Shown: one piece after another, positions 8,835 through 42,369 of the stretch
How the letters are laid out: each line of letters begins with the position of its first letter
How positions within the stretch are numbered: the first letter of the stretch is position 1
Source: an uncultured bacterium
GTDB taxonomy: Bacteria; Patescibacteriota; Microgenomatia; Levybacterales; UBA12049
Direction of reading: 5' to 3'
DNA: 64,000 nucleotides
Assembly (NCBI GenBank): GCA_963826535.1
Contig: CAWGXL010000002.1
Span: 30,503 to 94,502, forward strand
Made by a program: the position numbers and the translations under genes
The notes under the pieces: generated by a model
Seen by the model: only the letters and a program-made list of their open reading frames with translations
What the model was told of the DNA's origin: nothing
The model's database searches: none

Positions 8835-8967
8835 TAAGCTCAGTATTTCATATTACACAAACGAGTGTCAACAAAACATTTCCAGTTCCTGAATCTCCTT
8901 TTCAATACTTTTTAATTTCATTCAAATCAAATTAGGCGGATTTTGCACTATTTGCTATAATGGGTAT

Positions 8968-9852
8968 ATGGAAAAAGATTATTATAAAGCACTAGGTGTT
9001 TCTAAAAGTGCAACTCACGATGAAATAAAACGTGCCTACCGTAAGCTTGCTCTTGAATTTCATCCGGACCGTAATAAAACCAAAGAAGCAGGTGATAAGT
9101 TTAAAGAAATAACCAAAGCTTATGAAGTACTGTCCAATGATGAAAAAAGAAAAATGTACGACCAGGTAGGCCATGCAGCCTTCGAACAAGGAGCAGGTCA
9201 GGGTCCCTTTGGAGGCGGGGGCGGGCAATCTTCCGGACAATATGGACCTTTCACATATAGTTATCAAACGAATGGAGGAGGAGCTGACTTTGATTTCGGA
9301 GGCTACTCTGACCCATTTGAAATTTTCGAACAATTCTTCGGCGGCGGTTCACCATTCGGGCAACGACAGCGGCGCCCTATATACTCAGCAGCAATCAGTT
9401 TTATGGACGCAGCGCTCGGTACAGAGAAGGAGTTAATAATTAATGGAGAAAAACAGAAAATTAAAATTCCCGCAGGAGTTGATAGCGGTTCTAGAATCCG
9501 ATTTGAGAAGTATGACATTGTGCTTGATGTCAAGCCGGACGCACGCTTTGCGCGCGAAGGATCTGATGTTGTATCGGAAAAAGAAATCTCTTTCACACAA
9601 GCCGCAATAGGCGCGGAAATATCAGTCGCAACTGTTGATGGAGATATTAAAATACGCATACCCGAAGGAACACAACCTGGTACCTTGATCCGCCTTCAAG
9701 GACGAGGCATCCCTCATCTCAGAGGCAGCGGACGGGGAAGTCACTATGTACGCATCAAAGTCGTCGTCCCCAAAAAACTTTCAAAACAACAAAGAGATCT
9801 CCTTGAAGAATTTCAGAAAGAAGAGCTACAAGCAAAAAAACGCTGGTTCTAA
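8968..9852 (+). CDS. DnaJ-family J-domain protein (CbpA-like class II: J domain, G/F region, DnaJ C-terminal domains, no CxxCxGxG zinc finger)
   Basis: J domain [34 protein letters not shown] with the HPD motif, then a Gly/Phe-rich linker ([21 protein letters not shown]...[20 protein letters not shown]) and a C-terminal substrate-binding region. There are no Cys repeats. Confidence 0.8.
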
Positions 9853-9879
9853 AATTTGTTAAAAGTTAATTAATATTAT

Positions 9880-14990: not shown

Positions 14991-15105
14991 ATAAGTAATA
15001 TGCGTCACCATTATTGCAAAAGAGCTGCCAAGACTGGGTAGAATATCCATAACTGAACCTCGCTTAGCGGGGTTTTTTAATTTTAGAACTTATTTTGTAT
15101 TAATT

Positions 15106-17274
15106 ATGATAAACCGAAAGGCGTTCGGTAATTTAGTTGTTTTGAAAGAGCAATTAAAAGAGAAGTGCGGAGTCATTGGGGTTTGGTCTGGAGAAAAAAT
15201 TGCGCCTTATTATGTACGAAAAGGTTTGTCCACACTGCAGCATCGAGGTCAAGAAAGTGCCGGAATTAGCATTTACACTCCTCAAGACAAAATAAAAACT
15301 TATTCAGGCATGGGTCTTGTTCTCGGTGTGCTGACAGCCGAAGTTCTTAAGCAGCTGGGAGAAAGTATGGCTGCTATTGGACATAATAGATATTCTACCA
15401 GCGGCAGTACCAGTTTAAGTAATGCCCAACCTATTACGCTCAAAAAGGGAAAATTTGAATTGAGCATAGGACATAATGGCAATATCCCTGATTGCGAGTA
15501 CCTTGGAGAACAAATAGAAGAAAAACAAAAAGAAGGAGAAACCAGCGATACTCATCTAGTCGCAAAGCTCCTATTGCAAGAACGGCCAAACTATTCAGAT
15601 TGGGACGAAACCCTAAAACAAGTATTACCGCGAATTCGCGGAGCTTTTTGTTTTGTAATTTTAACTGAAGACGGCAACATTTACGGCGCCCGCGATACAT
15701 ATGGTATACGGCCCTTTTGTTTAGGAAAATTTGAGAATGGGTGGATTATTGCCTCAGAATCTGTTGCTGTTGATTTAACAGGTGCCGAATTTTTGCGCGA
15801 TATTAAACCGGGAGAGATTATTAAGATCAGCTTTGATGGGAAGCTTACCTCTTTCTTTTTCGGTGCGCCATCAAGAGAACAGAATTGTATTTTTGAATAT
15901 ATTTATTTTTCCCGCCCGGATAGTTTTGAAAATGGCATTAGGATAAGAAAAGGGCGTGAAGAATCAGGCAGACTGTTGGGACAGCGAATTCTGAAAAAGG
16001 CAATCTTGGCAGATGTCGTGGTCCCTGTCTTTGACTCCGGATATCCGGCGGCGAAAGGAGTGGCGCATGTTCTTGGATTGCCTCTTGTGGACGCTATTAC
16101 TGTAAGTCATTATATCGGCCGAACTTTTATCCAACCGGGGCATGAAAATAGAAAGGCAGCAGTGAATGGCAAGCATAATATTATACCCGATGATATTAAG
16201 GGTATGCGAATTATTGTGGTTGATGATTCAGCAGTACGATTAACAACGAGCAAGCGGTTGACTCGTGAATTAAATGCAGCAGGTGCAAAGAGTGTATTTA
16301 TGGCTATTGCCAGCCCTCCAGTTGTTAACCACTGCGATATGGGCATTGATATGAAAAGTAAAAAAGAACTGCCGGCTTCTCTTTGGGAACATGAACCATT
16401 TGAGCTGATTGAAGAAAATGTTGCCAAGTTTATAGGCTCAAATGCAGCCGTGTATTTGCCAATTGAAGATTTAACCCGCGCTTTAGGAGGCGCAAAAGAG
16501 GATTTCTATCACTATCCGTTTGGTGGACCGCATCCTATACGCGATGCACAGCATAAATTTCCCAAGAGGAAGAAAACTATAAATCCTAAACCAAGAATAG
16601 CAATTTTAATTTCCGGAACTGGCACAAATCTTCAGGCAATTATCGATGGTGTAAAAACTCATGATATTGAGGCAGAAATCGTTTCAGTGGTATCGAACAA
16701 AAAGGACGCCTATGGTCTCAAAAGAGCCAAAGAGAATAATATTCCAACCCTCGTTCTTCCTATGACAGGAAAACTGAATGATAAAGTCGCGAGAAAAGAA
16801 TTTGAGTTGAAGCTTCTTGCTCATATCAAAAAGACCGCCGCCGACCTTATTGTTTTGGCTGGCTGGATGTTGGTTTTGGGGGATGAGTTCCTATCTGCTT
16901 TAGCAAAATTGGAAGTGCCTGTTATTAATCTTCATCCCGCGTTATTATCAAAAGGCAATGAAGATCATATCGCTACATCACGCGGGACTATCCCGGTTAT
17001 CCGTGGTATAGGTACACAAGCAATAAAATATGCTTTTGACAAAAACTTACTTGTTTCAGGAGTGACAGTCCATCAAATACTCCCCAAAAATAATTTTGAT
17101 ATCGGCCCGGTCATTTTAAAAGAGGAAGTAAGAAGAAGAAAAGAAGATACACTTGAAACATTTGAGAAACGAACTCATGAAGCGGAATATCGGGTTTTAC
17201 CAACAGCGATCAAAAGAGTTTTGCACGTCATGAAACAAGGAGTAGATGTAAGCCGCGGGGAGTTTTATTGGTAA
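15106..17274 (+). CDS. purF: fusion protein: amidophosphoribosyltransferase (PurF, with ~20-aa propeptide) fused to phosphoribosylglycinamide formyltransferase (PurN)
   Basis: The PurF part has the Ntn class-II amidotransferase start ...KEKCGVIGVW after a propeptide, and a PRTase motif ...GMRIIVVDDSAVRLTTSKRL.... The C-terminal ~200 aa read PRIAILISGTGTNLQAIIDG...VINLHPALLSK...GVTVHQI, the PurN formyltransferase signatures. Confidence 0.8.
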   Translation: MINRKAFGNLVVLKEQLKEKCGVIGVWSGEKIAPYYVRKGLSTLQHRGQESAGISIYTPQDKIKTYSGMGLVLGVLTAEVLKQLGESMAAIGHNRYSTSGSTSLSNAQPITLKKGKFELSIGHNGNIPDCEYLGEQIEEKQKEGETSDTHLVAKLLLQERPNYSDWDETLKQVLPRIRGAFCFVILTEDGNIYGARDTYGIRPFCLGKFENGWIIASESVAVDLTGAEFLRDIKPGEIIKISFDGKLTSFFFGAPSREQNCIFEYIYFSRPDSFENGIRIRKGREESGRLLGQRILKKAILADVVVPVFDSGYPAAKGVAHVLGLPLVDAITVSHYIGRTFIQPGHENRKAAVNGKHNIIPDDIKGMRIIVVDDSAVRLTTSKRLTRELNAAGAKSVFMAIASPPVVNHCDMGIDMKSKKELPASLWEHEPFELIEENVAKFIGSNAAVYLPIEDLTRALGGAKEDFYHYPFGGPHPIRDAQHKFPKRKKTINPKPRIAILISGTGTNLQAIIDGVKTHDIEAEIVSVVSNKKDAYGLKRAKENNIPTLVLPMTGKLNDKVARKEFELKLLAHIKKTAADLIVLAGWMLVLGDEFLSALAKLEVPVINLHPALLSKGNEDHIATSRGTIPVIRGIGTQAIKYAFDKNLLVSGVTVHQILPKNNFDIGPVILKEEVRRRKEDTLETFEKRTHEAEYRVLPTAIKRVLHVMKQGVDVSRGEFYW

Positions 17275-17308: not shown

Positions 17309-18217
17309 ATGACCTTTCTTGAAAAATTCGAACTCCTGAAAAAATCAATTCCTGTTCCGGCCATAACGATTGACAAATCTACAATTGATTGTGAATACGT
17401 AGATTATGCCTATGGAAGCAAAAATTGCTATTATTGTTTTACTAGCAATCTACTTAAAGACAGTATGTATTCAACAATGGGATGGGGCGATAAGTTAGTA
17501 GATTGTACTTATTTAGCAGAGTCGGAAAGATGTTTTCAATGCGTTGATTGCACTAAATGTTATAGCTCTACCTATTTAATGGATTGTAATAGCACTACTG
17601 ATTGCCATTTCTCGGCATTTTTAAACTCTTGCAACGATTGTTTTGGTTGTGTTGCATTAACTCATAAGAAATATTGTATTTTCAACAAACAATACACAAA
17701 AGATGAATATATGAAAAAAGTTGAAGAATTAAAAAAAGAAAAACCTGAAAAGATTCTAAAACAAATGCTGGAATTAAAAAAACAAATACCTCATCCCGCA
17801 AGCATACAATACAATAATGAAAAAAGCCCTTATGGTGATTATATATATGATTCAAAGAACGTTTATTGGGGTTTTAATTGTTGGTATGGAGAAAATTGTG
17901 GATATATCTATACAGGCGGTACGTCGAAAAACTCATGGGACACTTTTTTCTCAGGCGGATTCAAATCTAAAGGAACTATTTCTGAACGAGTTTATGAACA
18001 AGTAGATTCAGTCGTATGTTACGATTGTGCATTTCTTAACAATTGTAATAACTGCACTAATTGTTATTACAGCGCGGATATGAGAAACTGCTCAGACTGC
18101 TTCGGTTGCGTTGGGCTATCAAAGAAAAAATACTGTATCCTCAATAATCAACTAACCAAAGACCAATACGAAAAAGCTGTTAAAAATATCAGAAAAGAAC
18201 TTGGGTGGAAATCTTAG
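17309..18217 (+). CDS. Cys-rich repeat protein, paralog 2, embedded in the purine operon
   Basis: 302-aa ORF about 65% identical to 4890..5807 with the same C-x2-C repeat architecture and N-terminus (MTFLEKFELLKKSIPVPA). It starts 35 bp after purF-purN and overlaps the purD start. Confidence 0.6.
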   Translation: MTFLEKFELLKKSIPVPAITIDKSTIDCEYVDYAYGSKNCYYCFTSNLLKDSMYSTMGWGDKLVDCTYLAESERCFQCVDCTKCYSSTYLMDCNSTTDCHFSAFLNSCNDCFGCVALTHKKYCIFNKQYTKDEYMKKVEELKKEKPEKILKQMLELKKQIPHPASIQYNNEKSPYGDYIYDSKNVYWGFNCWYGENCGYIYTGGTSKNSWDTFFSGGFKSKGTISERVYEQVDSVVCYDCAFLNNCNNCTNCYYSADMRNCSDCFGCVGLSKKKYCILNNQLTKDQYEKAVKNIRKELGWKS

Positions 18218-18233
18218 TCTTGGAAAGATAGAT

Positions 18234-19535
18234 ATGGTAAAAAAGTCAGTCCTCATCATCGGCAACCTAGCCCGCGAACATGCCCTGGGTTGGAAACTTA
18301 AACAATCTGCCAAAGTAGGAAAAATTTATTTTGCTCCCGGAAATGTGGGCACTGGTCTAATTGGTGAGAATACAGGAATTGATGCCCTTGATATTAAGTC
18401 ATTAGTAAAATTTGCTAAAACGCATAATATTTATTTGACCGTTGCCGGCCCTGACGCATCGCTTGCTGCCGGAGTAGTTGACGAGTTTAAAAAAGCTAAA
18501 ATGAAAATTTTCGGACCCACTAAGAATGCGGCACAAATTGAATCATCAAAAGCCTTTTCGAAACAGTTGATGAAAGAAGAAAATATCCCGACAGCAGTTT
18601 TTAAAAAATTTACCGATCCCTCAAAAGCCAACAAATATGTCAAAACACTAAGCTTGCCGATTGTCATAAAAGCCAGTGGATTGGCATCGGGTAAAGGAGT
18701 AATTATCGCAAAAACCTTAGACGTAGCGCAAAGATTAATTGATGATATTTTAATTAAGAAAATCTTCGGAGAATCAGGCAATGAAATAATCATTGAAGAA
18801 TTTTTAGAAGGCCATGAAATTTCCATCCACGCTTTTTGTGACGGAAAAACCGTTTCAGTATTTCCTGTAAGTAAAGATCACAAGTCTATTTTTGAAAACA
18901 ACCTCGGGCCAAACACCGGCGGCATGGGAACGATTGCACCTGTGCCGGGTTTAAATAAATCTTTTTTGAAAGAAGTAAATCAAACAATTGTTCAACCGGC
19001 TCTCAATGGCATGAAGAAAAAAGGAATTACCTTTACCGGTTGTTTATATCCGGGATTAATTTTAACCAAACAAGGACCAAAAGTACTCGAATTTAATTCC
19101 CGTTTTGGCGACCCGGAAATGGAATCTTACATGAGGATTTTAGAGACCGATATTTTTGATATTTTAGAAGCATGTGTCAACAGTACACTTTCTCAACTGA
19201 ATATCAAATGGAAAAAACAATTCGCATGTTGTATAGTCCTTGCATCCGCTGGTTATCCAGGAACAGTAAAGACAGGAGAAATTATACATGGCCTTAAACT
19301 TACTCCTCCCTTGATAAAGGGAGGTCGGGAGGGATTTAATAATGACGTTGCAGTATTCCATTTCGGAACCAAAATTGAAAATGGGAACTTAGTCACAAAT
19401 GGCGGCAGGGTCCTCGGCATAACAGCAATCGGAAATACTTTGGATCAGGCTTTAGATAAAGCATATGCTATGATTGGAGAAAAAGGAATCCATTTTTCGG
19501 GAATGCAATATAGACGGGATATTGGAAGATCATGA
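18234..19535 (+). CDS. purD: phosphoribosylamine--glycine ligase (GAR synthetase)
   Basis: The PurD N-terminus reads MVKKSVLIIGNLAREHALGWKLKQSAKVGKIYFAPGNVGT. The ATP-grasp body is present. The C-terminus reads ...NGGRVLGITAIGNTLDQALDKAY. The track ORF begins at an upstream TTG (18201), and ATG 18234 is the more likely start. Confidence 0.85.
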   Translation: MVKKSVLIIGNLAREHALGWKLKQSAKVGKIYFAPGNVGTGLIGENTGIDALDIKSLVKFAKTHNIYLTVAGPDASLAAGVVDEFKKAKMKIFGPTKNAAQIESSKAFSKQLMKEENIPTAVFKKFTDPSKANKYVKTLSLPIVIKASGLASGKGVIIAKTLDVAQRLIDDILIKKIFGESGNEIIIEEFLEGHEISIHAFCDGKTVSVFPVSKDHKSIFENNLGPNTGGMGTIAPVPGLNKSFLKEVNQTIVQPALNGMKKKGITFTGCLYPGLILTKQGPKVLEFNSRFGDPEMESYMRILETDIFDILEACVNSTLSQLNIKWKKQFACCIVLASAGYPGTVKTGEIIHGLKLTPPLIKGGREGFNNDVAVFHFGTKIENGNLVTNGGRVLGITAIGNTLDQALDKAYAMIGEKGIHFSGMQYRRDIGRS

Positions 19536-22534
19536 AAAACCAAACAGCAAGAATAGAAATATTTTCAAAAGTATTTGATACGCGGGCTGTGACATCAAAG
19601 AACCGATTGATAAAACTGAGTTTAGTAACTGGAGATATTGATCTGTGGATTTCCGATGTCTATACGATTGATAAAACTTTTACCTCACCCCAACTTCAGA
19701 GGATTGCATCAATGCTCGCAAACCCTGTAATCCAAGACACAGTCATCCGTAAACAATTTGAAACTAAAACGTTTGACAATACTAAGCCATTTTCTTTCGC
19801 AATCGAGATCGGATTTCTTCCCGGTGTTACCGATAATGTAGCTAATACTGCGCGGGAAGGGATTGAAGATTTATTAAAAACAAAATTTAGTGAACAAGAA
19901 GGCGTTTATTCTTCACAACTATTTTTTCTGAAAGGAAAAATAACAGAACATGAAGCTTTAAAAATCGCCGAGAGTCTTTACAACCCACTTATCCAACGGG
20001 TTCATCTGAAAGACTTTAAAACATTTAAGAAAGATGGCGGTATGGAATTTATAGTGCCCCGCGTTATTATTACGCAAACCCCAAGTGTGACACAGGTTAA
20101 TCTTAAAGTTTCCGATAAAGAACTCCAGACAATCGGCAAATCAGGTATTGCCAACCCTGATGGAACTCGTCGCGGGCCGCTCGCCTTGAATTTGGCTTAT
20201 ATGAAAACCATACAAGCATTTTTTAAAAAGCTGGGAAGAAAACCAAACGATATAGAACTTGAATCCATTGCGCAGACCTGGTCTGAGCATTGTAAGCATA
20301 CGATTTTTGCCGATCCGATTGATGAACTCAAAGAGGGAATATTTAAAACATATATCAAAGGCGCAACCGAAAAGATTAGGAAGAAAAAGGGCAAGAGTGA
20401 TTTTTGCGTTTCCGTCTTTACCGATAATTCCGGAGCGATTGTTTTTGACGAAAAATATTTGGTAACACATAAAGTTGAAACACATAACAGTCCGTCAGCT
20501 CTTGATCCATTTGGTGGAGCAATTACAGGAATTGTTGGCGTAAACCGGGATACCATCGGATTTGGATTAGGAGCAAAGCCGGTTGCCAATTTTTATGGAT
20601 TTTGTTTTGCAGACCCCCGATTGGATATACCATTATATAAGGGAAAAAATAAAACGCAGAGAATGCTATCTAGTCAGCGTATTATGGATGGGGTTATCGC
20701 GGGCGTAAACAGCGGAGGCAACCAATCCGGAATTCCAACACCGCAGGGCTTCGTATATTTCAATGAGCGATTCCGGGGAAAACCACTCGTCATTGTAGGA
20801 ACAGTAGGGCTCATTCCCAGAAAAATAAAATCAAAATTTTCGCATGTAAAGAAGGCAAAACCCGGAGATTATATCGTCATGGTAGGTGGACGTGTTGGAA
20901 AAGACGGTGTTCATGGCGCGACATTCTCCTCAGAGGCTTTGGATTCCGGCAGTCCGGCAACATCTGTGCAGCTCGGTGATCCCATCACTCAAAAGAAATT
21001 AAGCGATGCAATAGTAAAAGAAGCGCGGGATATTCTTGCTTTTAACAGTATTACCGATAATGGCGCCGGCGGACTTTCCTGTTCGGTTGCAGAAATGGCC
21101 AAAGAGTCAGGCGGATGTCTGGTCGAACTTGAGAAAGTACCATTGAAATATCCTCATCTCGATCCATGGGAAATATGGGTTTCCGAGTCACAGGAACGAA
21201 TGACACTTGCAGTACCGAAAAAGAATTGGAAGAAGTTTTTTGATTTGATGAAAAGGCGGGGGGTTGAGGCAACAGTTATCGGAGAATTTACAGATAGCGG
21301 AAAGTGTATTGTAAAATTTAACTCAAAAACAATTATGAATATGGATTTGAACTTTTTGCATTACGGATTACCCAAGAGACCAATGAAAACGAACAAACCA
21401 CAAATCACGAATCACGAATCACGAATACCGGAAAATAAAGATTTAAATAAATCATTGCTACAAATGCTTTCAAGATTAAATATTGCGAGTTTCGAATTCA
21501 TCTCCCAACAATATGATCATATCGTGCAAGGCAATGCTGTACTTGGACCATTGCAAGGATGGGGAAAGGTTAATGGGGACACATCGGTAATAAGACCTGT
21601 TCTTTCATCTCAAAAAGGAGTGATTTTGTCTCAAGCTTTGTACCCAACATATAGCGAAATTGATCCGTATCGTATGGCAGGGGCGAATATTGATACGGCA
21701 ATTCGAAATGCAGTAGCAGCCGGCGCAAATCCTGACTATTTGTCACTTCTTGATAATTTTTGTTGGTGCAGCGCAAACGAGCCCGAGCGGCTTTATCAGT
21801 TAAAACTAGCAGCAAAAGCATGTTTCGATTTTGCCGTTGAGTATGGAACCCCATTCATTTCCGGCAAAGATAGCATGTTCAATGATTTTAATGGATTTGA
21901 TAAAGATGGTAAACCCATAAAAATTTCTGTCCTACCTACACTTCTTATTTCCTCATTCGGAGTTATTAATGACATAACCAAAGTTGTCTCACTGGATGCA
22001 AAATTGCCGGGAGATTTAGTCTATATTTTAGGCGAATCTTTTGATGAATTAGGCGGCTCTGAATATTTAGCAATGTTGAGTGAACGAGATAGAAAACAAT
22101 ATTTTAGTAAAAATATACCAAATGTTAATGCGCCGCGAAATAGGAAATTATATTCCGCATTGTATACCACAATCCAAAAGAATTTGGTTGCATCAAGCAT
22201 TAGTATAAGACATGGAGGATTGGGAGTAGCGCTGGCAAAAAAAGCGCTTGGCGGAATGCTCGGAATTACTGTTGATCTAAAACTAATTCCAGGAAACGTA
22301 AAGCGCGATGATAGTGTGTTGTATTCGGAAAGCCAAGGACGAATACTAGTTACTGTTGCGCCGGAAAATAAAACAGCATTTGAAAAGATATTTCGAGGGA
22401 ATTCATACTCGCTTGCTGGGAGGGTTACGAAAGAACCAAATATAATGATAAAAGGATTACAAGGAAATGAAATAATAAACCTTAGTTTAGCAAAAACATT
22501 GGAAGCATACAGAGAAACATTTAAAAATTTTTAA
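19532..22534 (+). CDS. purL: phosphoribosylformylglycinamidine synthase subunit PurL with an N-terminal PurS-like extension
   Basis: The 1000-aa body is PurL (FGAM synthase II), with AIRS/AIRS_C-like repeats (...VETHNSPSALDPFGGAITGIVGVNRD...) and overall co-linearity. The first ~150 aa (...LQRIASMLANPVIQDTVI...) resemble PurS (LLANTVIEDY). Confidence 0.75.
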   Translation: MKNQTARIEIFSKVFDTRAVTSKNRLIKLSLVTGDIDLWISDVYTIDKTFTSPQLQRIASMLANPVIQDTVIRKQFETKTFDNTKPFSFAIEIGFLPGVTDNVANTAREGIEDLLKTKFSEQEGVYSSQLFFLKGKITEHEALKIAESLYNPLIQRVHLKDFKTFKKDGGMEFIVPRVIITQTPSVTQVNLKVSDKELQTIGKSGIANPDGTRRGPLALNLAYMKTIQAFFKKLGRKPNDIELESIAQTWSEHCKHTIFADPIDELKEGIFKTYIKGATEKIRKKKGKSDFCVSVFTDNSGAIVFDEKYLVTHKVETHNSPSALDPFGGAITGIVGVNRDTIGFGLGAKPVANFYGFCFADPRLDIPLYKGKNKTQRMLSSQRIMDGVIAGVNSGGNQSGIPTPQGFVYFNERFRGKPLVIVGTVGLIPRKIKSKFSHVKKAKPGDYIVMVGGRVGKDGVHGATFSSEALDSGSPATSVQLGDPITQKKLSDAIVKEARDILAFNSITDNGAGGLSCSVAEMAKESGGCLVELEKVPLKYPHLDPWEIWVSESQERMTLAVPKKNWKKFFDLMKRRGVEATVIGEFTDSGKCIVKFNSKTIMNMDLNFLHYGLPKRPMKTNKPQITNHESRIPENKDLNKSLLQMLSRLNIASFEFISQQYDHIVQGNAVLGPLQGWGKVNGDTSVIRPVLSSQKGVILSQALYPTYSEIDPYRMAGANIDTAIRNAVAAGANPDYLSLLDNFCWCSANEPERLYQLKLAAKACFDFAVEYGTPFISGKDSMFNDFNGFDKDGKPIKISVLPTLLISSFGVINDITKVVSLDAKLPGDLVYILGESFDELGGSEYLAMLSERDRKQYFSKNIPNVNAPRNRKLYSALYTTIQKNLVASSISIRHGGLGVALAKKALGGMLGITVDLKLIPGNVKRDDSVLYSESQGRILVTVAPENKTAFEKIFRGNSYSLAGRVTKEPNIMIKGLQGNEIINLSLAKTLEAYRETFKNF
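21403..21423 (+). repeat. (AATCACG)x3 heptanucleotide tandem repeat inside the purL coding sequence
   Basis: aatcacg aatcacg aatcacg, encoding ...ITNHESRIP.... The 7-nt unit is not a multiple of 3. Confidence 0.8.
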
Positions 22535-22548
22535 TTGAAAATTATTTT

Positions 22549-23346
22549 ATGAAACCGAAAGTACTTGTTTTTTCAGGATACGGATTAAATTCAGAAGAAG
22601 AAACCTCTTATGGATTTGAATTGGCTGGAGCAATTGGAGATATTGTGCATGTTAATGATTTAGCTGATCGTTTATATGACCTTAATAATTATCAAATCTT
22701 AGCTTTTCCAGGTGGTTTTTCTTATGGCGATGACACAGGAGCCGGCAACGCTTATGCAAATAAACTTAGAAATCATTTGTGGGAAAAAGTTGAAAAATTT
22801 ATAAGTCAGGATAAATTGGTTATTGGAATTTGTAATGGCTGCCAAATTATTACCAATCTTGGAATTGTTCCCGCATTTTATAAAAGCTATGGAAAGCGAC
22901 AGGTCGCGCTTCTTCATAATGACTCCGCCCGCTTAGTTACACGCTGGACTGATATGAAAGTCGCGACAAAATCCCCTTGGCTTGAAGGAATAGAAATACT
23001 CTCACTCCCAATTGCACATGGAGAGGGAAAATTCTTTGCAGACAAAGAAAGCCTTAAACAGTTACATAATAAAAAACAAATAGCGCTACAATATATTCAC
23101 GGACCAATAAGTACATATCTCGATGTACCGGCTAATCCGAATGGATCGGTAGATGATATCGCAGGCATTATTGATGAAACTGGCCGTATTTTGGGACTTA
23201 TGCCACATCCCGAACGGGGGATGTTTTTCGTCCAGCGCCCGGATAGCGGTCTACTTAAAGAAAAATACAGACGGGAGAAAAAAGCGCTGCCTGAATTTTC
23301 GGATGGATTACAAATATTTAAAAATGCTGTAAACTATTTTAAATAG
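22549..23346 (+). CDS. purQ: phosphoribosylformylglycinamidine synthase glutaminase subunit PurQ
   Basis: Class-I glutamine amidotransferase with catalytic GICNGCQ and a ...MPHPER... His region. It lies immediately downstream of purL. Confidence 0.85.
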   Translation: MKPKVLVFSGYGLNSEEETSYGFELAGAIGDIVHVNDLADRLYDLNNYQILAFPGGFSYGDDTGAGNAYANKLRNHLWEKVEKFISQDKLVIGICNGCQIITNLGIVPAFYKSYGKRQVALLHNDSARLVTRWTDMKVATKSPWLEGIEILSLPIAHGEGKFFADKESLKQLHNKKQIALQYIHGPISTYLDVPANPNGSVDDIAGIIDETGRILGLMPHPERGMFFVQRPDSGLLKEKYRREKKALPEFSDGLQIFKNAVNYFK

Positions 23347-23386
23347 TACTGTTTGCAATATTGAGCTTATAGTGATATAATAATTT

Positions 23387-24400
23387 ATGGAGGCTAAAAA
23401 AGTAATCATTGGTACCCTTGGAAGCCATACAGCGCTGCAGATCCTCAAAGGCGCCAAAGATGAAGGCTTCTCCACGCTTCTAATAACTGTTCCCAAGCAT
23501 AAAGCTTTTTACTCAACATTTCCTTTTGTCGATAAGACTATTGTTATTCCTACTTTTGCAGATTTTCCATCAATAGAAAAAGAATTAATCAAAAAACAGG
23601 TAATCCTCATACCGCATGGTTCGTACGTGGCATATCTAGGATTTGAGAAAAATAAAAATATGCATGTCCCTTATTTCGGCAATAAAGACGTGTTGGATTG
23701 GGAGGAAAATAGAGACAAGCAACGTATGTGGTTGCTTTCAGCAGGCATTACTATGCCTGGACAATTTGACTTAAACGATAAAATTTTATATCCGGTTATT
23801 GTTAAGTCATTTGGAGCAGCAGGAGGAAGCGGATATTTTATGGCTAAGGATAAACCCGATTTAAAAAGCAAATTGGAAGATTTTGGACAAAAAAAATATA
23901 TTATACAGCAGTACATCGTTGGCGTTCCTCTTTACGTACACTATTTTTATTCTCCTTTGAGTGATAAGCTTGAAATAATGAGCATGGATAGAAGATATGA
24001 GACCAATGTGGATGCACTTGGCAGAGTTCCGTTTGGGATTCAAAAAGATATTGCATTAAATCCGTCTTTTGTCGTTGTCGGTAATAGCGAACTGGTGCTT
24101 CGGGAGGGAATGCTGTCAACAGCATATGATATGGGCCGAAAAGTAATTGACACCTCAAGAAAACTAATTGGCAAACGCGGAATTTTCGGCCCTTTTTGTT
24201 TGGAAACTATTATTACCCCTGACCGTAAATTTTCTGTAATTGAAATTTCCTGCAGAATAGTTGCAGGGACGAATCTATTTATTAACGGCTCCTCTTATTC
24301 TTGGTTATATTACAATGAGCCGATGAGTACTGGAAGAAGAATCGCAAGAGAAATTAAAAATGCTATTAAAGATTCTAAATTAGAATTATTGTTAGATTAA
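23387..24400 (+). CDS. purP: 5-formaminoimidazole-4-carboxamide ribonucleotide synthetase, archaeal type (PurP), copy 1
   Basis: Near co-linear with Methanocaldococcus PurP: IGTLGSHTALQILKGAKDEGFST, HYFYSPL, GPFCLE, GRRIAREIKNAI (compare TLGSHTSLHILKGAKLEGFST, HYFYSPL, GPFCLQ, GQRIAREIK). Confidence 0.8.
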   Translation: MEAKKVIIGTLGSHTALQILKGAKDEGFSTLLITVPKHKAFYSTFPFVDKTIVIPTFADFPSIEKELIKKQVILIPHGSYVAYLGFEKNKNMHVPYFGNKDVLDWEENRDKQRMWLLSAGITMPGQFDLNDKILYPVIVKSFGAAGGSGYFMAKDKPDLKSKLEDFGQKKYIIQQYIVGVPLYVHYFYSPLSDKLEIMSMDRRYETNVDALGRVPFGIQKDIALNPSFVVVGNSELVLREGMLSTAYDMGRKVIDTSRKLIGKRGIFGPFCLETIITPDRKFSVIEISCRIVAGTNLFINGSSYSWLYYNEPMSTGRRIAREIKNAIKDSKLELLLD

Positions 24401-24404
24401 CTTT

Positions 24405-25511
24405 ATGAAAAATTCTATATCAAAAAAAGATATAACAATAGCGACTCTTGGCAGTCATTCCGCTTTGGATGTGAGTAGGGGAGCCAAGGACGAAGGATTT
24501 CGTACAGTTGTCGTAGCTCAAAAAGGAAGAGAAAAAACCTACAGTCATTACTTTAAGACTTCTGGGAATACTGGTTGCGTAGACGAATGCATTGTTCTTG
24601 ATAAATTTTCAGACATTATGAATCAAGATATACAAAAACAACTTATTGACCGAAATGCAATTTTTGTCCCCAATCGTTCATTTGAAGTATATATAAATGA
24701 TTATAATGCAATAGAAAACAAATTTAATGTCCCAATGTTTGGAAATAAAAAATTGCTCAGAATTGAAGAAAGAGGTTTCAAGCCTAATCAATATGACTTG
24801 CTGGATTCTGCAAAAATTAATTACCCGAAACAGTTTAAAGATGCTATGGATATAGATCGCTTATGCATAGTTAAAGTTCTGGAAAAAGAACGAGGATTCG
24901 AAAGAGCATTCTTTCTTGCGAATAGTTATAAGGAGTATAAAAAGAAAGCTCAAAACAGAATCAAAAAGGGAGAGACTACTGAAGAATTGTTAAAAAAAGC
25001 CGTCATTGAGGAATTCGTTCCAGGTGTTCATGTTAACTTTAATTATTTCTATAGCCCACTTACTAAAACATTAGAACTACTTGGAACTGATACAAGAAGA
25101 CAAACTAATCATGAAGGAATTTACAAACTTTCTCCTGAGTATCAACAACAATACCAGAAGTTAGGCGGACGTATTAAATATGAAGAAGCAGGTCATACCG
25201 CTGTAACAGTACTTGAATCCATGCTTGAACAAGCCTTTGAAATGGGTGAGCGATTTGTTAAAGCAAGTAAAAAATTCGCTTCTCCAGGAATTATTGGACC
25301 GTTTGCATTGCAATCGATTATTATTCCCGGTCCACCAAAGAAAGATATTGTTGTTATTGACGTTTCTCCACGCATGCCTGGCTCTCCCGGTATCGCCGCA
25401 ACTCCATATAGTAAATATTTATTTGGAGAATCCATAAGCGTTGGTAGAAGAGTTGCCATGGAGATAAAAGAAGCTATAAAATTAAATAGACTAGAAGAAA
25501 TTGTAACTTAG
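24405..25511 (+). CDS. PurP-family ATP-grasp protein, paralog 2
   Basis: 368-aa ORF with IATLGSHSALDVSRGAKDEGFRT, NYFYSPL, GPFALQS and GRRVAMEIKEAI. It is more divergent than copy 1, in tandem 4 bp downstream. Confidence 0.7.
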   Translation: MKNSISKKDITIATLGSHSALDVSRGAKDEGFRTVVVAQKGREKTYSHYFKTSGNTGCVDECIVLDKFSDIMNQDIQKQLIDRNAIFVPNRSFEVYINDYNAIENKFNVPMFGNKKLLRIEERGFKPNQYDLLDSAKINYPKQFKDAMDIDRLCIVKVLEKERGFERAFFLANSYKEYKKKAQNRIKKGETTEELLKKAVIEEFVPGVHVNFNYFYSPLTKTLELLGTDTRRQTNHEGIYKLSPEYQQQYQKLGGRIKYEEAGHTAVTVLESMLEQAFEMGERFVKASKKFASPGIIGPFALQSIIIPGPPKKDIVVIDVSPRMPGSPGIAATPYSKYLFGESISVGRRVAMEIKEAIKLNRLEEIVT

Positions 25512-25520
25512 TTATTTATT

Positions 25521-26924
25521 ATGTCAAAACTTGATTTTTCAAATTATCTTTCACCATTCACCTGGCGTTACGGCTCTGAAGAAATGCGTCATATTTTTAG
25601 CGAAGAAAATAAATATAAAATCTGGCGAAAAATCTGGGTGGCTTTGGCAAGAGCAGAACATAAAGCTGGACTCTTATCCAAAGAGGAACTTGAAGATTTG
25701 GAAAAACATCAAGAAGATATTGATATTCAATCTATTCTTGAAAATGAAAAGGAAACCAAACACGATGTTGTGGCGGCAATACATGAATTTGCATATAAAG
25801 CAAAAACCGGCGGGGGGAAAATACACCTCGGAGCAACAAGCATGGATATAGTTGACAATACAGATGCTGTCCGGATAAAAGAAGCACTGGAATTAATTGA
25901 ACAAAAACTAAAGAAACTTCTCTCGCTTTTTAGTCAGAAAATTGAACAATATGCCTCGTTTCCTTGTATGGGATACACCCATCTGCAGCCAGCTGAGCCG
26001 ACCACTGTTGGATATCGGCTGAGTTTCTATGCTCAAGACTTATTAACTGACTTTCATTATTTACAATTCGTAAAAAATCAAATTAAGGGAAAAGGCATGA
26101 AAGGCGCGGTGGGTACTGCCGCAGCATATTCATCAGTGCTTGATGGGACAAGCGTTACCCCGGAAAATTTAGAGAAAGAAATTATGGAAGAATTGGGAAT
26201 TGATGCTGCACTTGTCTCTACACAAGTTTATCCAAGAAAATATGATTACCTTACGTTATCAGTATTGAGTAGTATTTCATCGAGTCTCGCAAAATTTGCC
26301 GGGGATATTCGAATCTTACAATCGCCCTCAATTGGAGAATGGTCAGAGCCTTTTGGAAAACAGCAAGTTGGATCATCAGCCATGCCATTTAAGAAAAACC
26401 CAATCAATTCGGAAAAAATTTGTTCACTCGCACGATTTATTGCAGCACTACCAAATGTGGCGTTAGAAAACGCAACTCTCTCTTATTTTGAGCGGACCCT
26501 GGATGACTCGGCGAATAAAAGAATTATAATCCCAGAAGCATTTTTAGCAGTTGATGAAATACTTAAGACATCTGAGAAACTTATTGATGGGTTGAGTTTA
26601 AATGAGAAAAAAATCGCATTTAACCTTTCACAATACGCGTCTTTCACAGCAACTGAAGGAATTTTAGTAGAAGCAGTTAAGAATGGAGCAAACAGACAAG
26701 AAATGCATGAGTTGCTTAGAACTATTTCATTAAAAGCATGGCAAGATGTGCAAGAAGGTAATGCAAATCCAATGATAAAGTTGCTAACTGAAAATATAAA
26801 AATTAAAAAATATGTGCCGGAAGAAAAAATACGTGGCCTATTGGATGTTAGCCAACATATTGGCAATGCACCCGATCGCGCAAAGCAATTAGTTAATAAA
26901 ATAAAACAAGAAGTACGCTTATGA
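25521..26924 (+). CDS. purB: adenylosuccinate lyase
   Basis: Fumarate-lyase superfamily signature GSSAMPFKKNP and PurB-like length (467 aa). Confidence 0.85.
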   Translation: MSKLDFSNYLSPFTWRYGSEEMRHIFSEENKYKIWRKIWVALARAEHKAGLLSKEELEDLEKHQEDIDIQSILENEKETKHDVVAAIHEFAYKAKTGGGKIHLGATSMDIVDNTDAVRIKEALELIEQKLKKLLSLFSQKIEQYASFPCMGYTHLQPAEPTTVGYRLSFYAQDLLTDFHYLQFVKNQIKGKGMKGAVGTAAAYSSVLDGTSVTPENLEKEIMEELGIDAALVSTQVYPRKYDYLTLSVLSSISSSLAKFAGDIRILQSPSIGEWSEPFGKQQVGSSAMPFKKNPINSEKICSLARFIAALPNVALENATLSYFERTLDDSANKRIIIPEAFLAVDEILKTSEKLIDGLSLNEKKIAFNLSQYASFTATEGILVEAVKNGANRQEMHELLRTISLKAWQDVQEGNANPMIKLLTENIKIKKYVPEEKIRGLLDVSQHIGNAPDRAKQLVNKIKQEVRL

Positions 26925-28048
26925 AAGATAGAATCGGCATAGTTGGAGGCGGGCAACTCGGACGAATGCTTTCATTTGCGGCAAAAAGGATGGGATTTAC
27001 AGTTACAATAATTGACCCAACCCCTCACTCACCAGCAGGACAAGTTGTAGATCGGGAAATCGTTGCAGGTTATAACGACGAAAAAGCTATTAGGGAACTA
27101 GCATCAGTTTCTGATTTTATTACCTTTGATATAGAGCTGGCAAACGCAAAACTTCTTGATGAACTTTCTGAAAATGGATTACAGGTAAACCCTTCCGCAA
27201 AAACATTGACTGTCATCAAAGATAAATTATCACAAAACAAATTTTTAAAAAAAGTTGGAATACCTGTTGCTAATTTTGCTGCAGTTGAAACTATGGAAGA
27301 TATTTTGGCTGCTATAAAACAATTCGGCTATCCAATAGTACTTAAAGCCCGCTTTGATGCCTATGACGGACGCGGGAATGCATTGATCAAAACAGAAAGT
27401 GATATAGAGCAAGGATTAAATAAACTGAAGAATAGAAAGTTATACGTAGAGAAATTTGTTCCCTTTGCCAAAGAATTAGCAATTGTGGTAGCACGAAATT
27501 TACAGGGCGAAATAGCAACATATCCTGTCGTAGAAACAGTCCATAGAAATAATATTTGTCATATAGTTTCTGCGCCCGCTCCTATTGATAAAAATATTGC
27601 CGGACAAGCGAAAGATTTGGCAATTCAGACAATGCGGCATTTAGAAGGAGCAGGTGTATTTGGTATAGAAATGTTTTTAACCAAAGACGGAAAAGTATTG
27701 GTAAACGAAATTGCGCCACGTGTTCATAATTCAGGACATTTTACTATAGAAGCCTGTGTTACTTCGCAATTCGAACAGCATATTAGAGCCATAACCGGCT
27801 TACCTCTTGGCTCTACAGATTTGATTGTTCCTTTTGCAGTGATGGTAAATATTTTGGGAGATAGAAGCGGAAAAGCAGAAATAAAGGGCTTAGAAAAAGC
27901 ATTAGCTATTACTAATGTAGCAGTACATATTTATGGAAAAACTGAAACCAGACCGGAACGCAAGATGGGGCATGTGACAGCGACTGGGAAAACACTGAAT
28001 GAAGCATTTGAAAAGGCAACTAGGGCGAGAAGTTATATAACAATATAA
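26921..28048 (+). CDS. purK: N5-carboxyaminoimidazole ribonucleotide synthetase
   Basis: ATP-grasp protein with IGIVGGGQLGRML and APRVHNSGH motifs. It is immediately upstream of purE. Confidence 0.8.
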   Translation: MKDRIGIVGGGQLGRMLSFAAKRMGFTVTIIDPTPHSPAGQVVDREIVAGYNDEKAIRELASVSDFITFDIELANAKLLDELSENGLQVNPSAKTLTVIKDKLSQNKFLKKVGIPVANFAAVETMEDILAAIKQFGYPIVLKARFDAYDGRGNALIKTESDIEQGLNKLKNRKLYVEKFVPFAKELAIVVARNLQGEIATYPVVETVHRNNICHIVSAPAPIDKNIAGQAKDLAIQTMRHLEGAGVFGIEMFLTKDGKVLVNEIAPRVHNSGHFTIEACVTSQFEQHIRAITGLPLGSTDLIVPFAVMVNILGDRSGKAEIKGLEKALAITNVAVHIYGKTETRPERKMGHVTATGKTLNEAFEKATRARSYITI

Positions 28049-28164: not shown

Positions 28165-28698
28165 ATGGAAAACAAGAAACCTTTAGTCGGTATAATCATG
28201 GGTTCGGACTCGGATCTTCCGGTTATGCAGGAAGCAGCGAAAATTTTGGATGAATTTGGTGTGGCACATGAGATTACTATTGTATCCGCTCACCGGACTC
28301 CTGATCGACTTGTTGATTATGCAAAAGACGCAATACAAAAAGAATTAAAAGTTATAATCGCCGGAGCAGGTGGATCAGCACATCTACCGGGTATGGCTGC
28401 ATCTTTTACTTCATTGCCGGTTATCGGCGTACCAATTAAAACAAATAGCATGGACGGATTAGACTCCTTACTTTCTATTGTGCAAATGCCTCCGGGTATC
28501 CCGGTTGCTTCAGTTGCCGTTAATGGCGCGAAAAATGCTGCTCTTTTAGCGATTGAAATTCTCGGAACTTATGATAAGAATCTGCAAGAAAAAATCATGG
28601 CATATAAAAGAAATTTAAATGACACGGTCCTGGAAAAAGTAGAAAAATTGAAAACAAAAGGTTATAAAAAATATTTAGAATCATCTGATAAATCATGA
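28165..28698 (+). CDS. purE: N5-carboxyaminoimidazole ribonucleotide mutase
   Basis: The motifs [14 protein letters not shown] and [27 protein letters not shown] are classical PurE. Confidence 0.85.
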
Positions 28699-29666
28699 TA
28701 CCGGCGAAAACTATTCTTTCCGCTAGCCCAAATTTACTTAAAACAATCGACATTCCGGAACTCGGAAAAAAACATCAAGGAAAAGTTCGCGACTTTTATG
28801 TTCTTAATGATAAGCGCGTAATAATCACAACAGACCGAATATCTGCATTTGATGTTATCCTGGGCTTAATTCCTTATAAAGGGACTGTCCTGAATTCTTT
28901 GGCTGCTTTTTGGTTTGAAAAAACAAAAGACATTATCCCTAATCATATAATTTCCATCCCCGATCCAAATGTCTCAGTTGTAAATAATTGTAAAAATGTT
29001 CCGGTTGAAATGGTAGTTCGAGGATATCTATCAGGTGTTACAAAAACATCAGTTTGGTATTCATATCAAAAGGGTGAGCGAAATATTTACGGCATGAAAT
29101 TTCCGGATGGTATGAAAAAAAATCAAAAGCTACCTAAGCCGGTTATTACTCCCACTACTCATCCCGAAGCCGGAAGCGCAATTCATGATGAACGGTTGAC
29201 CAGGGATGAAATAATTGAGCAAAAAATCGTTGATAAAAAATCATACAAACAAATGGAAGAAGTCTCTCTGGAGCTTTTTGATTTTGGCAGTAAGTGGTGT
29301 CTAAAGCACGGACTTATTCTGGTTGATACAAAATATGAATTCGGACTGTATGACGGAAAATTAATCCTTATTGATGAAATTCATACACCTGACTCCTCCA
29401 GATTTTGGATTTCTAACACATATAAAGAAAAATTTGAAAAAGGCTTAGAACCTGAAAATTTTGACAAAGAATTTCTCAGGCTTTGGTATGCGAATAAGGG
29501 ATACAGAGGCGATGGAATACCACCAAAAATGTCTGAAGATTTAATTGAAGAAGTCGCGAATCGGTATATTGATGTATATGAAAAAATAACAGGAGAAAAG
29601 TTTGAAGTTTATAGTTATCCTATTGAAGATCGGATTAGAAAAAATATTGTAAATTATATTAAATGA
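28695..29666 (+). CDS. purC: phosphoribosylaminoimidazole-succinocarboxamide synthase (long form)
   Basis: SAICAR synthetase motifs GKVRDFY...[10 protein letters not shown] and 323 aa. Confidence 0.8.
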
Positions 29667-30772
29667 AAAGACAAAAAATCACATACTCAGAAGTAGGTGA
29701 TAATTACGACACAAAGGATCCAATAAAAATCCTCGCTCAAACTGCTGCTAAAAAAACAGCTGTAAATCTCAAGAAACATGGTTTTGAAGAAATTGCTGAA
29801 TCCCGCGGTGAGTCAGCATATGTTTGGCAACAGGGGAATATTTACATGGCGACAGTTACTGAACAATTGGGGACAAAAAATCTAGTTGCGGATGAAACAA
29901 GAAAATTAACAGGAAAAACTTATTACGATATCATCGGTCACGATACCATCGCCACCATCATCAATGACCTTGCAACAGTTGGAGCGCAGCCATTAGTTAT
30001 TTCTGCATACTGGGCAATAGAGAATAATGATTGGCTTGCCGATGAGAAACGCATGAAAGATCTTATTGCCGGTTGGAAATCTGCATGTGACCTATCAGGC
30101 GCGGCATGGGGTGGAGGAGAAACGCCAACTTTGAAAGGTATCATAGAGCCAAACACTGTTGCACTTGGAGGATCGGCGATTGGAATTATTACGTCTAAGA
30201 AGCGTTTATTAAATGATAAAAATTTAATAGAAGGTGACAGAGTCCTTCTTCTGAAAAGTTCCGGCATAAATGCAAACGGTCTATCCCTTGCTCGTGCAAT
30301 TGCCAAAAAACTCCCAAAAGGGTATGCCACAAAATTAAAAAACGGGCAGATGTATGGAGAAGCAATCCTCAAAAAAACAAACATTTACGCCTTGCTCATA
30401 CAAGATTTACTCAATGCAGGAGTAAGTATTCATTACATTTCCAATATTACAGGTCATGGATTTAGAAAATTAATGAGGGCAAGACAAAACTTCTCATATA
30501 TTGTTGAAAAGTTATTTGATCCGCAGGAACTATTTCTCTTCATGCAAAAACATGCTGGTCTTTCCGATTATGAAATGTATGATGAATTCAACATGGGTAT
30601 GGATTATGCGATTTTTCTTCCGGAAAAGGCTGTTAAAAAAGCGCAATCAATAGTTAATAAAAACGGATTTGAAAGTATTAACGCAGGATATGTTTCTAGC
30701 GGAAAAAGACAAGTTATAATTAAACCGAAGAATATTGTACTGGGAGGAGAGTCATTGCAGCTTAAGGCTTAG
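29663..30772 (+). CDS. purM: phosphoribosylformylglycinamidine cyclo-ligase (AIR synthetase)
   Basis: The region ...IGHDTIATIINDLATVGAQPLVISAYWA...AWGGGETPTLKGII aligns with the PurM AIRS domain ([29 protein letters not shown]...LVGGETAEMPGMY). An AIRS_C-like C-terminus is also present. Confidence 0.7.
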   Translation: MKRQKITYSEVGDNYDTKDPIKILAQTAAKKTAVNLKKHGFEEIAESRGESAYVWQQGNIYMATVTEQLGTKNLVADETRKLTGKTYYDIIGHDTIATIINDLATVGAQPLVISAYWAIENNDWLADEKRMKDLIAGWKSACDLSGAAWGGGETPTLKGIIEPNTVALGGSAIGIITSKKRLLNDKNLIEGDRVLLLKSSGINANGLSLARAIAKKLPKGYATKLKNGQMYGEAILKKTNIYALLIQDLLNAGVSIHYISNITGHGFRKLMRARQNFSYIVEKLFDPQELFLFMQKHAGLSDYEMYDEFNMGMDYAIFLPEKAVKKAQSIVNKNGFESINAGYVSSGKRQVIIKPKNIVLGGESLQLKA

Positions 30773-41425: not shown

Positions 41426-42358
41426 ATGCTGATTATTACAGGCACAGTTGCTTATGATTATATAATGAATTTTCCCGGAATGTTCTCCGATCATATCCTT
41501 GCAGGAAAAGAACATAAAATTAATTTATCATTTATCGTGAATACATTCGCAAAAAGACGCGGTGGTACTGCTGGAAATGTGTCTTATAGCCTGGGACTTT
41601 TAGAAACTGAACATTTATTATTCACAGCTGCCGGCCGCGATTTTGCGGAATATAAAAAGGCATTGCGCAGACAAGGTATTGACACAAAATATATTTTCAT
41701 AGATAAAAATAATTATACCTCTACAGGTTTTGCCTTAACCGATAAAACAGACAATCAAATTTGGGGGTATTTTTACGGTGCTGCAGATAGAATAGAGGAA
41801 TTGAAGCTAAAAAAAGTCGCAAAAAAAGGAGACTTTGTTCTAATCGGGCCTTCAGGCTCTAGCAGTACTATGTCAATTGTAAGACAGTGTATAGATCTAA
41901 GCCTTCAATACATGTTTGATCCGGGTTTCATATTGACCCAGATCAAAACACAAGATCTAAGGCTGGGAGTGAAGCATGCAACTTATATAATCGGGAATGA
42001 TTATGAAATAAATTCTATACAAAGCAGGCTTACAGACTTTAAGACCTTAGTGAAAGGGAAAACGGTTATCACGACTTTAGGCCAAAAAGGAGCCTTGATA
42101 GAGCGGGATGGTGAAAAAATTTCTATAGCTGCCGTTCAAGTCAAAGACGCACAAGACCCGACCGGAGCCGGAGACGCATGGCGGGCAGGTTTTTTGGCAG
42201 GACTTTCCCGAAATTTCGATTTGCGCACTTGCGGACAACTTGGATCAGTTACCTCAGCTTATGCAGTTGTTAACTATGGAACACAGGAGCATAAGTTTAG
42301 TAAAAGAACGTTTGCGCAAAGATATAAAGATACGTATAATACAGAGATTAAACTTTAA
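41426..42358 (+). CDS. PfkB-family carbohydrate/nucleoside kinase (possible adenosine kinase, given the adjacent ahcY)
   Basis: PfkB signature 2 DPTGAGDAWRAGFLAGL and a ribokinase-like fold of 310 aa. Confidence 0.65.
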   Translation: MLIITGTVAYDYIMNFPGMFSDHILAGKEHKINLSFIVNTFAKRRGGTAGNVSYSLGLLETEHLLFTAAGRDFAEYKKALRRQGIDTKYIFIDKNNYTSTGFALTDKTDNQIWGYFYGAADRIEELKLKKVAKKGDFVLIGPSGSSSTMSIVRQCIDLSLQYMFDPGFILTQIKTQDLRLGVKHATYIIGNDYEINSIQSRLTDFKTLVKGKTVITTLGQKGALIERDGEKISIAAVQVKDAQDPTGAGDAWRAGFLAGLSRNFDLRTCGQLGSVTSAYAVVNYGTQEHKFSKRTFAQRYKDTYNTEIKL

Positions 42359-42369
42359 TTATAGGTAAA

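Follow-up and report, generated by a model that had tools for sequence, protein, structure and literature searches.

PurP of Methanocaldococcus jannaschii (MJ0136, cluster Ia, PDB 2R7K) is the only characterised formate- and ATP-dependent synthetase of FAICAR (5-formamidoimidazole-4-carboxamide ribonucleotide), the product of 5-aminoimidazole-4-carboxamide ribonucleotide (AICAR) and the precursor of inosine monophosphate (IMP) at the end of the purine pathway. Other members of the family belong to clusters Ib and II, clusters Ia and Ib being also called PurP I and PurP II and cluster II PurP III (Zhang; Cruz); two of them, Pyrococcus furiosus PF1517 (cluster Ib) and PF0421 (cluster II), displayed no FAICAR synthetase activity when each was assayed alone, and PF1517 binds ATP and AICAR despite the lack of detected activity. 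The present analysis concerns two adjacent genes, here named purP-A and purP-B, in a 64-kb stretch of contig CAWGXL010000002.1 (the window), where one gene of cluster Ib and one of cluster II lie inside the purine operon of a bacterium; with moderate confidence, the pair can be read as a co-inherited two-protein module that would use formate and ATP on AICAR at the end of the pathway, yielding FAICAR and perhaps also IMP.

The closest described system is the pair formed by PF1517 (PDB 2R84) and PF0421, which is found in Thermococci, Crenarchaeota, Thaumarchaeota, Korarchaeota, Archaeoglobi, and Methanosarcinales; in the survey of Cruz et al., 61 archaea carry cluster Ib and cluster II together. 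Archaea having only this pair are generally devoid of PurH, PurV, PurJ, and PurO, so that both their formyltransferase and their IMP cyclohydrolase are formally unassigned; Crenarchaeota and Pyrococci are examples of a purine pathway that ends independently of PurH. Two proposals are in print: that a PurP II/III hetero-hexamer makes FAICAR, and that one PurP paralog is the missing IMP cyclohydrolase, an idea raised for archaea by Brown et al., who could not test it. Extracts of Sulfolobus solfataricus, which has the pair only, incorporate formate in the conversion of AICAR to IMP (Brown et al. 2011). Archaeal purP pairs have been reported next to pur genes, Methanosarcinales possess purH plus both purP types, and in Korarchaeum cryptofilum the pair lies outside any pur cluster (Brown et al. 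2011). Among 1,403 complete genomes, Cruz et al. found PurP proteins only in archaeal ones; a literature search returned no description of PurP in bacteria and no later paper settling the function of the cluster Ib and cluster II proteins.

The two genes of the window, separated by a gap of 4 nt, are the following:

purP-A, 23387..24400, + strand: 337 aa, PurP-family ATP-grasp protein of the cluster Ib / PurP II type

purP-B, 24405..25511, + strand: 368 aa, PurP-family ATP-grasp protein of the cluster II / PurP III type

An original prediction, made from the letters of the window, had assigned both open reading frames (ORFs) to the PurP family; its coordinates are exact, and the assignment is borne out by Pfam scores far above the gathering cut-offs of 25 bits for DUF1246 and 23.8 bits for DUF1297. 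Both proteins carry DUF1246 at the N-terminus followed by DUF1297 at the C-terminus, with scores of 137.9 bits (E 2e-40) and 215.6 bits (E 6e-64) in PurP-A and of 150.7 bits (E 2e-44) and 207.5 bits (E 2e-61) in PurP-B. Each aligns end to end with all three solved structures of the family: PurP-A is closest to P. furiosus PF1517 (2r84; 332 bits, E 3e-98, residues 5-336, 51% identity), followed by M. jannaschii PurP (278 bits) and Thermococcus kodakarensis 2pbz (179 bits), while PurP-B is closest to M. jannaschii PurP (2r7k; 237 bits, E 3e-69, residues 6-367), followed by PF1517 (153 bits) and 2pbz (101 bits); both are 41% identical to the M. jannaschii protein. The four motifs quoted in the prediction occur literally in PurP-A, and their variants in PurP-B are TLGSHSALDVSRGAKDEGFRT, NYFYSPL, GPFALQ, and GRRVAMEIK. 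The profile and homology comparison with the PurP family thus gave matches for both proteins, and top hits to PurT or PurK were not seen. Membership in these or in another ATP-grasp family was rejected, the top matches being DUF1246 and DUF1297 and a separate PurK being encoded at 26921-28048; PurT and PurK resemble the two proteins in their ATP-grasp chemistry via an acyl phosphate, and differ from them in belonging to other Pfam families. The NCBI annotation pipeline (PGAP) names the bacterial homologues of PurP-A as the ligase, and those of PurP-B as "DUF1297 domain-containing protein".

PurP-A and PurP-B are only 33% identical to each other; their archaeal orthologues form two paralog groups of ancient origin, cluster Ib (PurP II) for the former and cluster II (PurP III) for the latter. 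According to Brown et al. (2011), cluster I is characterised by Asn258, which contacts the AICAR carboxamide, and by a (K/R)GG(K/R)G loop at positions 161-165, while in cluster II position 258 is invariably His and the loop, poor in glycine, is longer by two residues; the formyl-contacting residues His27 and Arg314 are 100% conserved in archaeal PurPs. When 120 bacterial homologues of PurP-A and 120 of PurP-B were aligned with the M. jannaschii and PF1517 sequences (M. jannaschii numbering throughout), position 258 was Asn in all the members of the A clade and His in all those of the B clade. The A-clade loop has the cluster-I length and reads A-G-G-(K80/R14/S9/G6)-G, its first position being Ala rather than Lys or Arg in 115 of the 120 sequences, and the loop of PurP-B and its clade is EKERGFERAFF, Gly-poor and two residues longer than that of cluster I. 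In a distance tree, 63 full-length representatives of the family fall into two cleanly separated groups: N258, comprising M. jannaschii PurP, PF1517, and PurP-A, and H258, which includes PurP-B. The original prediction had described the genes as tandem duplicates; a recent tandem duplication is rejected by the low identity and by the distinct subfamily signatures, and its parallel with Methanocaldococcus PurP "and its paralog" fails too, since the literature gives M. jannaschii a single PurP with no paralog. The window thus resembles the archaeal pair both in these signatures (Asn258 and a short Gly-rich loop in one partner, His258 and a longer loop in the other) and in the co-occurrence of the two genes, often adjacent and near pur genes; unlike the archaeal pair, it belongs to a bacterium.

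Most of the residues that line the active site are retained. His27 is present in 120 of 120 A sequences and in 119 of 120 B sequences, and Arg314 in all sequences of both clades, both residues being found in the window pair; Lys156 and Arg228 are invariant or nearly so in both clades, and Ser94 nearly so. Ser266 is invariant in B and variable in A (G65/S29/A25), being Gly in the PurP-A of the window. PurP-B keeps Ser94 and Ser266 for the AICAR phosphate, His27 and Arg314 for the formyl group, and Lys156 with an acidic residue at 310 for the ATP-grasp core; it alters the residue touching the carboxamide (258), which is the nucleophile in the cyclisation. Both features favour a PurP-B that binds nucleotide and is catalytic. 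The changes G93R, H210N, Y229R, E230Q, R264L, and E310D, together with the replacement of VAGT at 316-319 by PGSP, are fixed in 118 to 120 of the 120 members of the B clade, which suggests selection for a distinct function rather than decay. Compared to MJ0136, the window proteins share the two-domain ATP-grasp architecture, His27, Ser94, Lys156, and Arg314 in both, Asn258 in PurP-A and Ser266 in PurP-B; the M. jannaschii enzyme, however, is a single gene product found beside PurO, whereas the window encodes two divergent paralogs with no PurO in view. That one or both genes are decaying, functionless relics is very improbable: the loop of the window PurP-A is indeed without both basic residues, but neither ORF is interrupted or truncated, dozens of positions do not vary among the 120 homologues of each clade (60-88% overall identity), B-specific substitutions reach 120 of 120 sequences, and the synteny is conserved across many metagenome-assembled genomes (MAGs).

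According to Pfam and NCBIfam scans, purP-A and purP-B lie inside a 12-gene pur operon of about 15.7 kb, entirely on the + strand, in the order purF-purN fusion, 302-aa ORF, purD, purL, purQ, purP-A, purP-B, purB, purK, purE, purC, and purM. The original prediction that this cluster otherwise holds every step from purF to purB and no purH agrees with the scans: none of purH, purV, purJ, and purO, and no MGS, AICARFT, or PurO domain, was found in any scanned ORF of the 64 kb, and a tblastn search of the whole window with bona fide PurH gave nothing better than E = 0.97. Likewise, when the PurH of the sister clade was used as a query, with matches listed down to 48% identity, none was found on six contigs of at least 10 kb belonging to the window's clade, which include the 196,521 bp contig carrying the window and the 155,518 bp contig of its relative L003; the same search matched 27 of 47 contigs of more distant relatives (Fisher's exact p = 0.01 for the two groups, a descriptive value only, the sequences being related). 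Since purH is missing from the operon of the window lineage, the pair is the only candidate within the cluster for steps 9 and 10, a place in the pathway, and in relatives also in the operon, that is occupied by PurH, the usual bacterial AICAR formyltransferase and IMP cyclohydrolase, a folate-dependent protein of unrelated fold which is absent from the window.

The distribution of purH among related loci is more complicated. In a comparison set of 22 bacterial loci and one archaeal locus (L021), in which pur genes were mapped in the fetched flanks, purP-B accompanies purP-A without exception, adjacent to it or one or two genes apart, and every locus, like the window, holds exactly one cluster Ib gene and one cluster II gene; in most of them the pair is located between purQ and purB, which matches the reported archaeal contexts. 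A full-length purH is nonetheless found within 10 kb of the pair in 13 of the 22 bacterial loci. In 11 Levybacteria-type loci (L005, L006, L008-L011, and L013-L017; e.g., L010 10001-14292) it is inserted between the two genes, the order being purFN-purD-purL-purQ-purP-A-purH-(x)-purP-B-purB-purK-purE-purC-purM, an arrangement that, unlike that of the window, separates the partners and has not been described for archaea in the literature examined; in L001 it lies downstream of the pair (A-B-HAD-purH), and in L022 the order is purH-x-A-xx-B. The PurH of L010 is intact, with 353 bits to a solved PurH and the KHxNPCG motif present. Some of the eleven loci have a further gene ahead of purP-B, namely purA in L016 and an ORF resembling a histidine phosphatase in L008 and L010.

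No purH is in view in the remaining nine loci (L003, L004, L007, L025, L018, L023, L024, L019, and L020). In the nearest relatives of the window, L003, L004, and L007 (PurP-A identity 77-82%), and in L025 (71%), the operon recurs without purH, A and B being neighbours or almost so; together with the window these four loci form a set of intact operons with 60-82% protein identity and no purH within 10 kb. L019 (2461-4603) and L020 (2664-4806), from Saccharibacteria-type MAGs, carry the pair alone, the fetched flanks containing no further pur gene, which suggests that the two genes form a self-sufficient unit. Thus the claim that PurP replaces purH stands for the subclade of the window, as far as the contigs reach, and does not hold generally; it describes the operon of the window, not a property of the module.

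Individual loci of the set have further peculiarities. The stand-alone pairs of L019 and L020 adjoin genes for an S-adenosylhomocysteine (AdoHcy) hydrolase and a PfkB kinase, a setting that recalls Korarchaeum cryptofilum; the window too holds AdoHcy hydrolase and PfkB kinase genes (41426-43647), followed by a GT20 glycosyltransferase gene (43751-45313) that has a counterpart in L020. Two related operons have small unrelated insertions: a HEPN protein and an ORF of unknown function lie between purP-A and purP-B in L003 (11021-11820), and in L004 (8001-9131) purL is separated from purQ by genes for a DUF559 protein and a PF04199 "Cyclase". In L023, a high-GC bacterial pur cluster, the A-type and B-type genes are separated by a gene for a 383-aa protein (8853-10004) having a signal-peptide-like N-terminus and no Pfam match, the start and stop codons of which overlap its neighbours. 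L007, L017, and L018 are titled "uncultured Gammaproteobacteria bacterium" and nevertheless carry a Levybacteria-type pur operon, with a PurP-A 62-77% identical to that of the window; these labels are probably wrong.

The reading that we favour is that PurP-A and PurP-B act together on AICAR with formate and ATP. PurP-A would be the probable formylating subunit, as judged from the retention of His27, Ser94, Lys156, Asn258, and Arg314 (though Ser266 is replaced by Gly and the P-loop is without basic residues). PurP-B, which keeps the core residues for the nucleotide phosphate, the formyl group, and the ATP-grasp reaction and has fixed changes in the surroundings of the carboxamide site and of the phosphate loop, may be either an obligate hetero-oligomer partner or the catalyst of the next step, from FAICAR to IMP. 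Several observations weigh against this proposal. Neither P. furiosus protein made FAICAR alone, and both window proteins fall below every equivalog cut-off of the NCBIfam PurP models, the best scores being 370.6 bits against a cut-off of 580 for PurP-A and 290.4 against 556 for PurP-B. In its AGGSG loop PurP-A keeps the three glycines and is without both consensus basic residues, the Ser at the variable basic position being shared by only 9 of 120 relatives. The retention of PurN in the operon implies that formyl-folate is available in the cell, leaving no obvious need for a folate-independent step; purH accompanies the pair in more than half of the bacterial loci, so that the pair is no simple alternative to PurH; finally, the genome of the window may carry a purH, purO, or purJ outside the 64 kb. 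Of the original prediction that both genes encode FAICAR synthetases, the family part is therefore confirmed, while the functional part is not, cluster Ia being the only characterised one, PF1517 and PF0421 being inactive, and the scores lying under the equivalog cut-offs.

An alternative explanation, less probable than the one just given, is that the pair is an accessory formate-dependent bypass, and that a purH elsewhere in the genome carries out steps 9 and 10, or a purO or purJ step 10, nothing having been replaced. There is a parallel in PurT, which uses formate and ATP as a folate-independent alternative to PurN; the 13 loci in which purH is close to the pair, the intact PurH of L010, and the Methanosarcinales with purH and both purP types all fit this explanation, as does the fact that the sequence directly read amounts to 64 kb of the genome. 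On the other hand, the other pur genes of the organism are all in one operon, the five related operons without purH are intact, no PurH of the sister lineage is found on the 196 kb contig of the window or on the 155 kb contig of L003, and many archaea endowed with the pair have no PurH, PurO, or PurJ.

It is rather unlikely that PurP-A and PurP-B are ATP-grasp ligases for another reaction or with another formyl donor, their place in the pur operon reflecting a role in nucleotide metabolism that is related to AICAR formylation and yet distinct from it. FAICAR synthetase activity was not seen with the archaeal proteins of clusters Ib and II, though PF1517 binds ATP and AICAR, and the low equivalog scores, the presence beside the pair, in most relatives, of a PurH-based pathway that looks complete, and the differences of PurP-B at several invariant positions of the active-site region all point in that direction; however, His27 and Arg314 (formyl) and Ser94 (AICAR phosphate) are conserved in both clades, with Asn258 in A, S. 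solfataricus incorporates formate into IMP with the pair only, and the pathway must somehow reach its end in archaea that have nothing but the pair.

Within the favoured proposal, a further and more speculative step would be to regard PurP-B as the long-sought IMP cyclohydrolase of a third kind, perhaps a FAICAR cyclase assisted by ATP, in which His258 replaces the Asn that contacts the carboxamide nucleophile, so that A and B alone would convert AICAR to IMP without PurH, PurO, or PurJ. We hold this version to be doubtful; if it were true, the operons without purH and the stand-alone pairs of the Saccharibacteria-like genomes would be natural examples of it.

As for the order of events, a distance tree of the concatenated A and B proteins places the window in one clade with L003, L004, and L007; this clade is sister to that of the A-purH-B loci, and L001, L018, and L019/L020 lie outside both. 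The pair is adjacent in the outgroup loci, in the archaeal L021, and in Sulfolobales, and adjacency of A and B is probably the ancestral state; a deletion of purH from between the two genes in the lineage of the window was considered and is not favoured, the outgroups and archaea having adjacent genes and the purH of L001 being too divergent. Indeed, the latter shares only 38-41% identity with its counterparts in the A-purH-B clade, compared to 66-71% for PurP-A, and this divergence, with the adjacency in the outgroups, argues that purH entered these operons more than once.

An archaeal origin of the bacterial pair is plausible. Its distribution, broad in archaea and narrow in bacteria, makes a transfer from archaea the economical inference, and to this extent the original prediction of a horizontal acquisition fits; the comparison with archaeal PurPs, on the other hand, did not polarise the transfer, since labelled archaeal sequences were scarce in the trees and support values were not usable. 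Among verified archaeal proteins of cluster II, the one nearest to PurP-B is that of L021 (whose contig also encodes DNA polymerase B, Pus10, and a split guaA); at 51% identity, it stands roughly level with the bacterial B sequences that diverge most. The trees built for the two proteins were small: in that of B the bacterial sequences cluster, leaving two archaeal ones outside, and in that of A the bacterial sequences are interleaved with PF1517. The two topologies agree broadly, as would be expected if the genes were inherited as a unit.

The other genes of the operon are listed below with the family evidence for each:

purF-purN fusion (steps 1 and 3), 15106..17274, + strand: GATase, PRTase, and Formyl_trans_N (Pfam); TIGR00639 PurN 160.8 bits, cut-off 150.1

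302-aa ORF with no family, 17309..18217, + strand: 3' end overlaps the purD start by 17 nt

purD (step 2), 18201..19535, + strand: GARS_N, GARS_A, and GARS_C

purL (step 4), 19532..22534, + strand: 1000 aa; FGAR-AT_linker, AIRS, and AIRS_C; PurL NCBIfam models cover residues 228-999

purQ (step 4, glutaminase subunit), 22549..23346, + strand: GATase_5, E 3e-75

purB (step 8), 25521..26924, + strand: TIGR00928 415.7 bits, cut-off 326

purK (step 6a), 26921..28048, + strand: ATP-grasp, PurK_C, and preATP-grasp

purE (step 6b), 28165..28698, + strand: TIGR01162 216.9 bits, cut-off 149.6

purC (step 7), 28695..29666, + strand: NF009251 428 bits, cut-off 371

purM (step 5), 29663..30772, + strand: AIRS and AIRS_C; TIGR00878 173.6 bits, under the cut-off of 236

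The PurN domain on the purF fusion, noted in the original prediction, is confirmed by a TIGR00639 score above the cut-off, and is a further difference from the archaeal pair, in that the window operon also encodes the folate-dependent PurN. The fusion protein has 722 aa, and the fusion is kept in the Levybacteria-type operons (L003-L017 and L025), L001 having separate genes. The N-terminal region of PurL (about 215 aa; window 19532-20176) has no Pfam match even at E 0.01 and is conserved, in that the PurL proteins of relatives align with it from residue 1-5 onward; a separate purS gene is lacking, and this region is probably a fused PurS-like domain. The 302-aa ORF (17309-18217) encodes 25 Cys residues and seven CxxC motifs, distributed over two homologous halves of about 150 aa each, both ending in CxDCFGCVxLxxKKYCIxNxQxTKDxY. 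It has no Pfam or NCBIfam match and only two weak PHROG matches (E ~1e-3 and 9e-3) of unknown function, its single-sequence AlphaFold2 model is unusable (pLDDT, the predicted local distance difference test score, of 33), and it is absent from all the related loci; since these include the other operons without purH, it was rejected as a candidate for the missing IMP cyclohydrolase.

A promoter-like element, TTTGCA-18-TATAAT with an extended -10 TG (window 23352-23381), ends 5 nt upstream of the purP-A start codon, and directly upstream of purF (window 15055-15085) there is a GC-rich hairpin of 9 bp with a T-run behind it; over the whole window, neither the promoter nor the terminator scan rose above chance, and transfer RNA and Rfam scans gave no matches. 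Upstream of the operon, a 1564-aa ORF (9880-14574, + strand) has as its sole family match a short Peptidase_M48 segment at residues 144-195. Many ORFs of the window (guanine-cytosine content about 38%) are without any family match; those that point to the host encode DnaJ, DprA, a LytR_C protein, and a topoisomerase I of bacterial type that carries zinc ribbons. Among named relatives, those closest to both PurP proteins are Patescibacteria MAGs, mostly Candidatus Levyibacteriota, which is within the Microgenomates group; the host is thus a Levybacteria-like, ultra-small bacterium of the Patescibacteria.

The pair is common in Patescibacteria MAGs, and this has consequences for annotation: these genes should not be read as encoding proven FAICAR synthetases, nor should folate independence be deduced from their presence, PurN being retained. 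PurP has so far been treated as an archaeal signature enzyme; the complete cluster Ib and cluster II pair is now found in bacterial purine operons, which offer a natural comparison among clusters having the pair with purH, the pair alone in a full operon, and the pair without an operon. A mesophilic bacterial pair, the proteins of which would be suited to complementation in Escherichia coli, may also be an easier system in which to address the question raised by the archaeal one.

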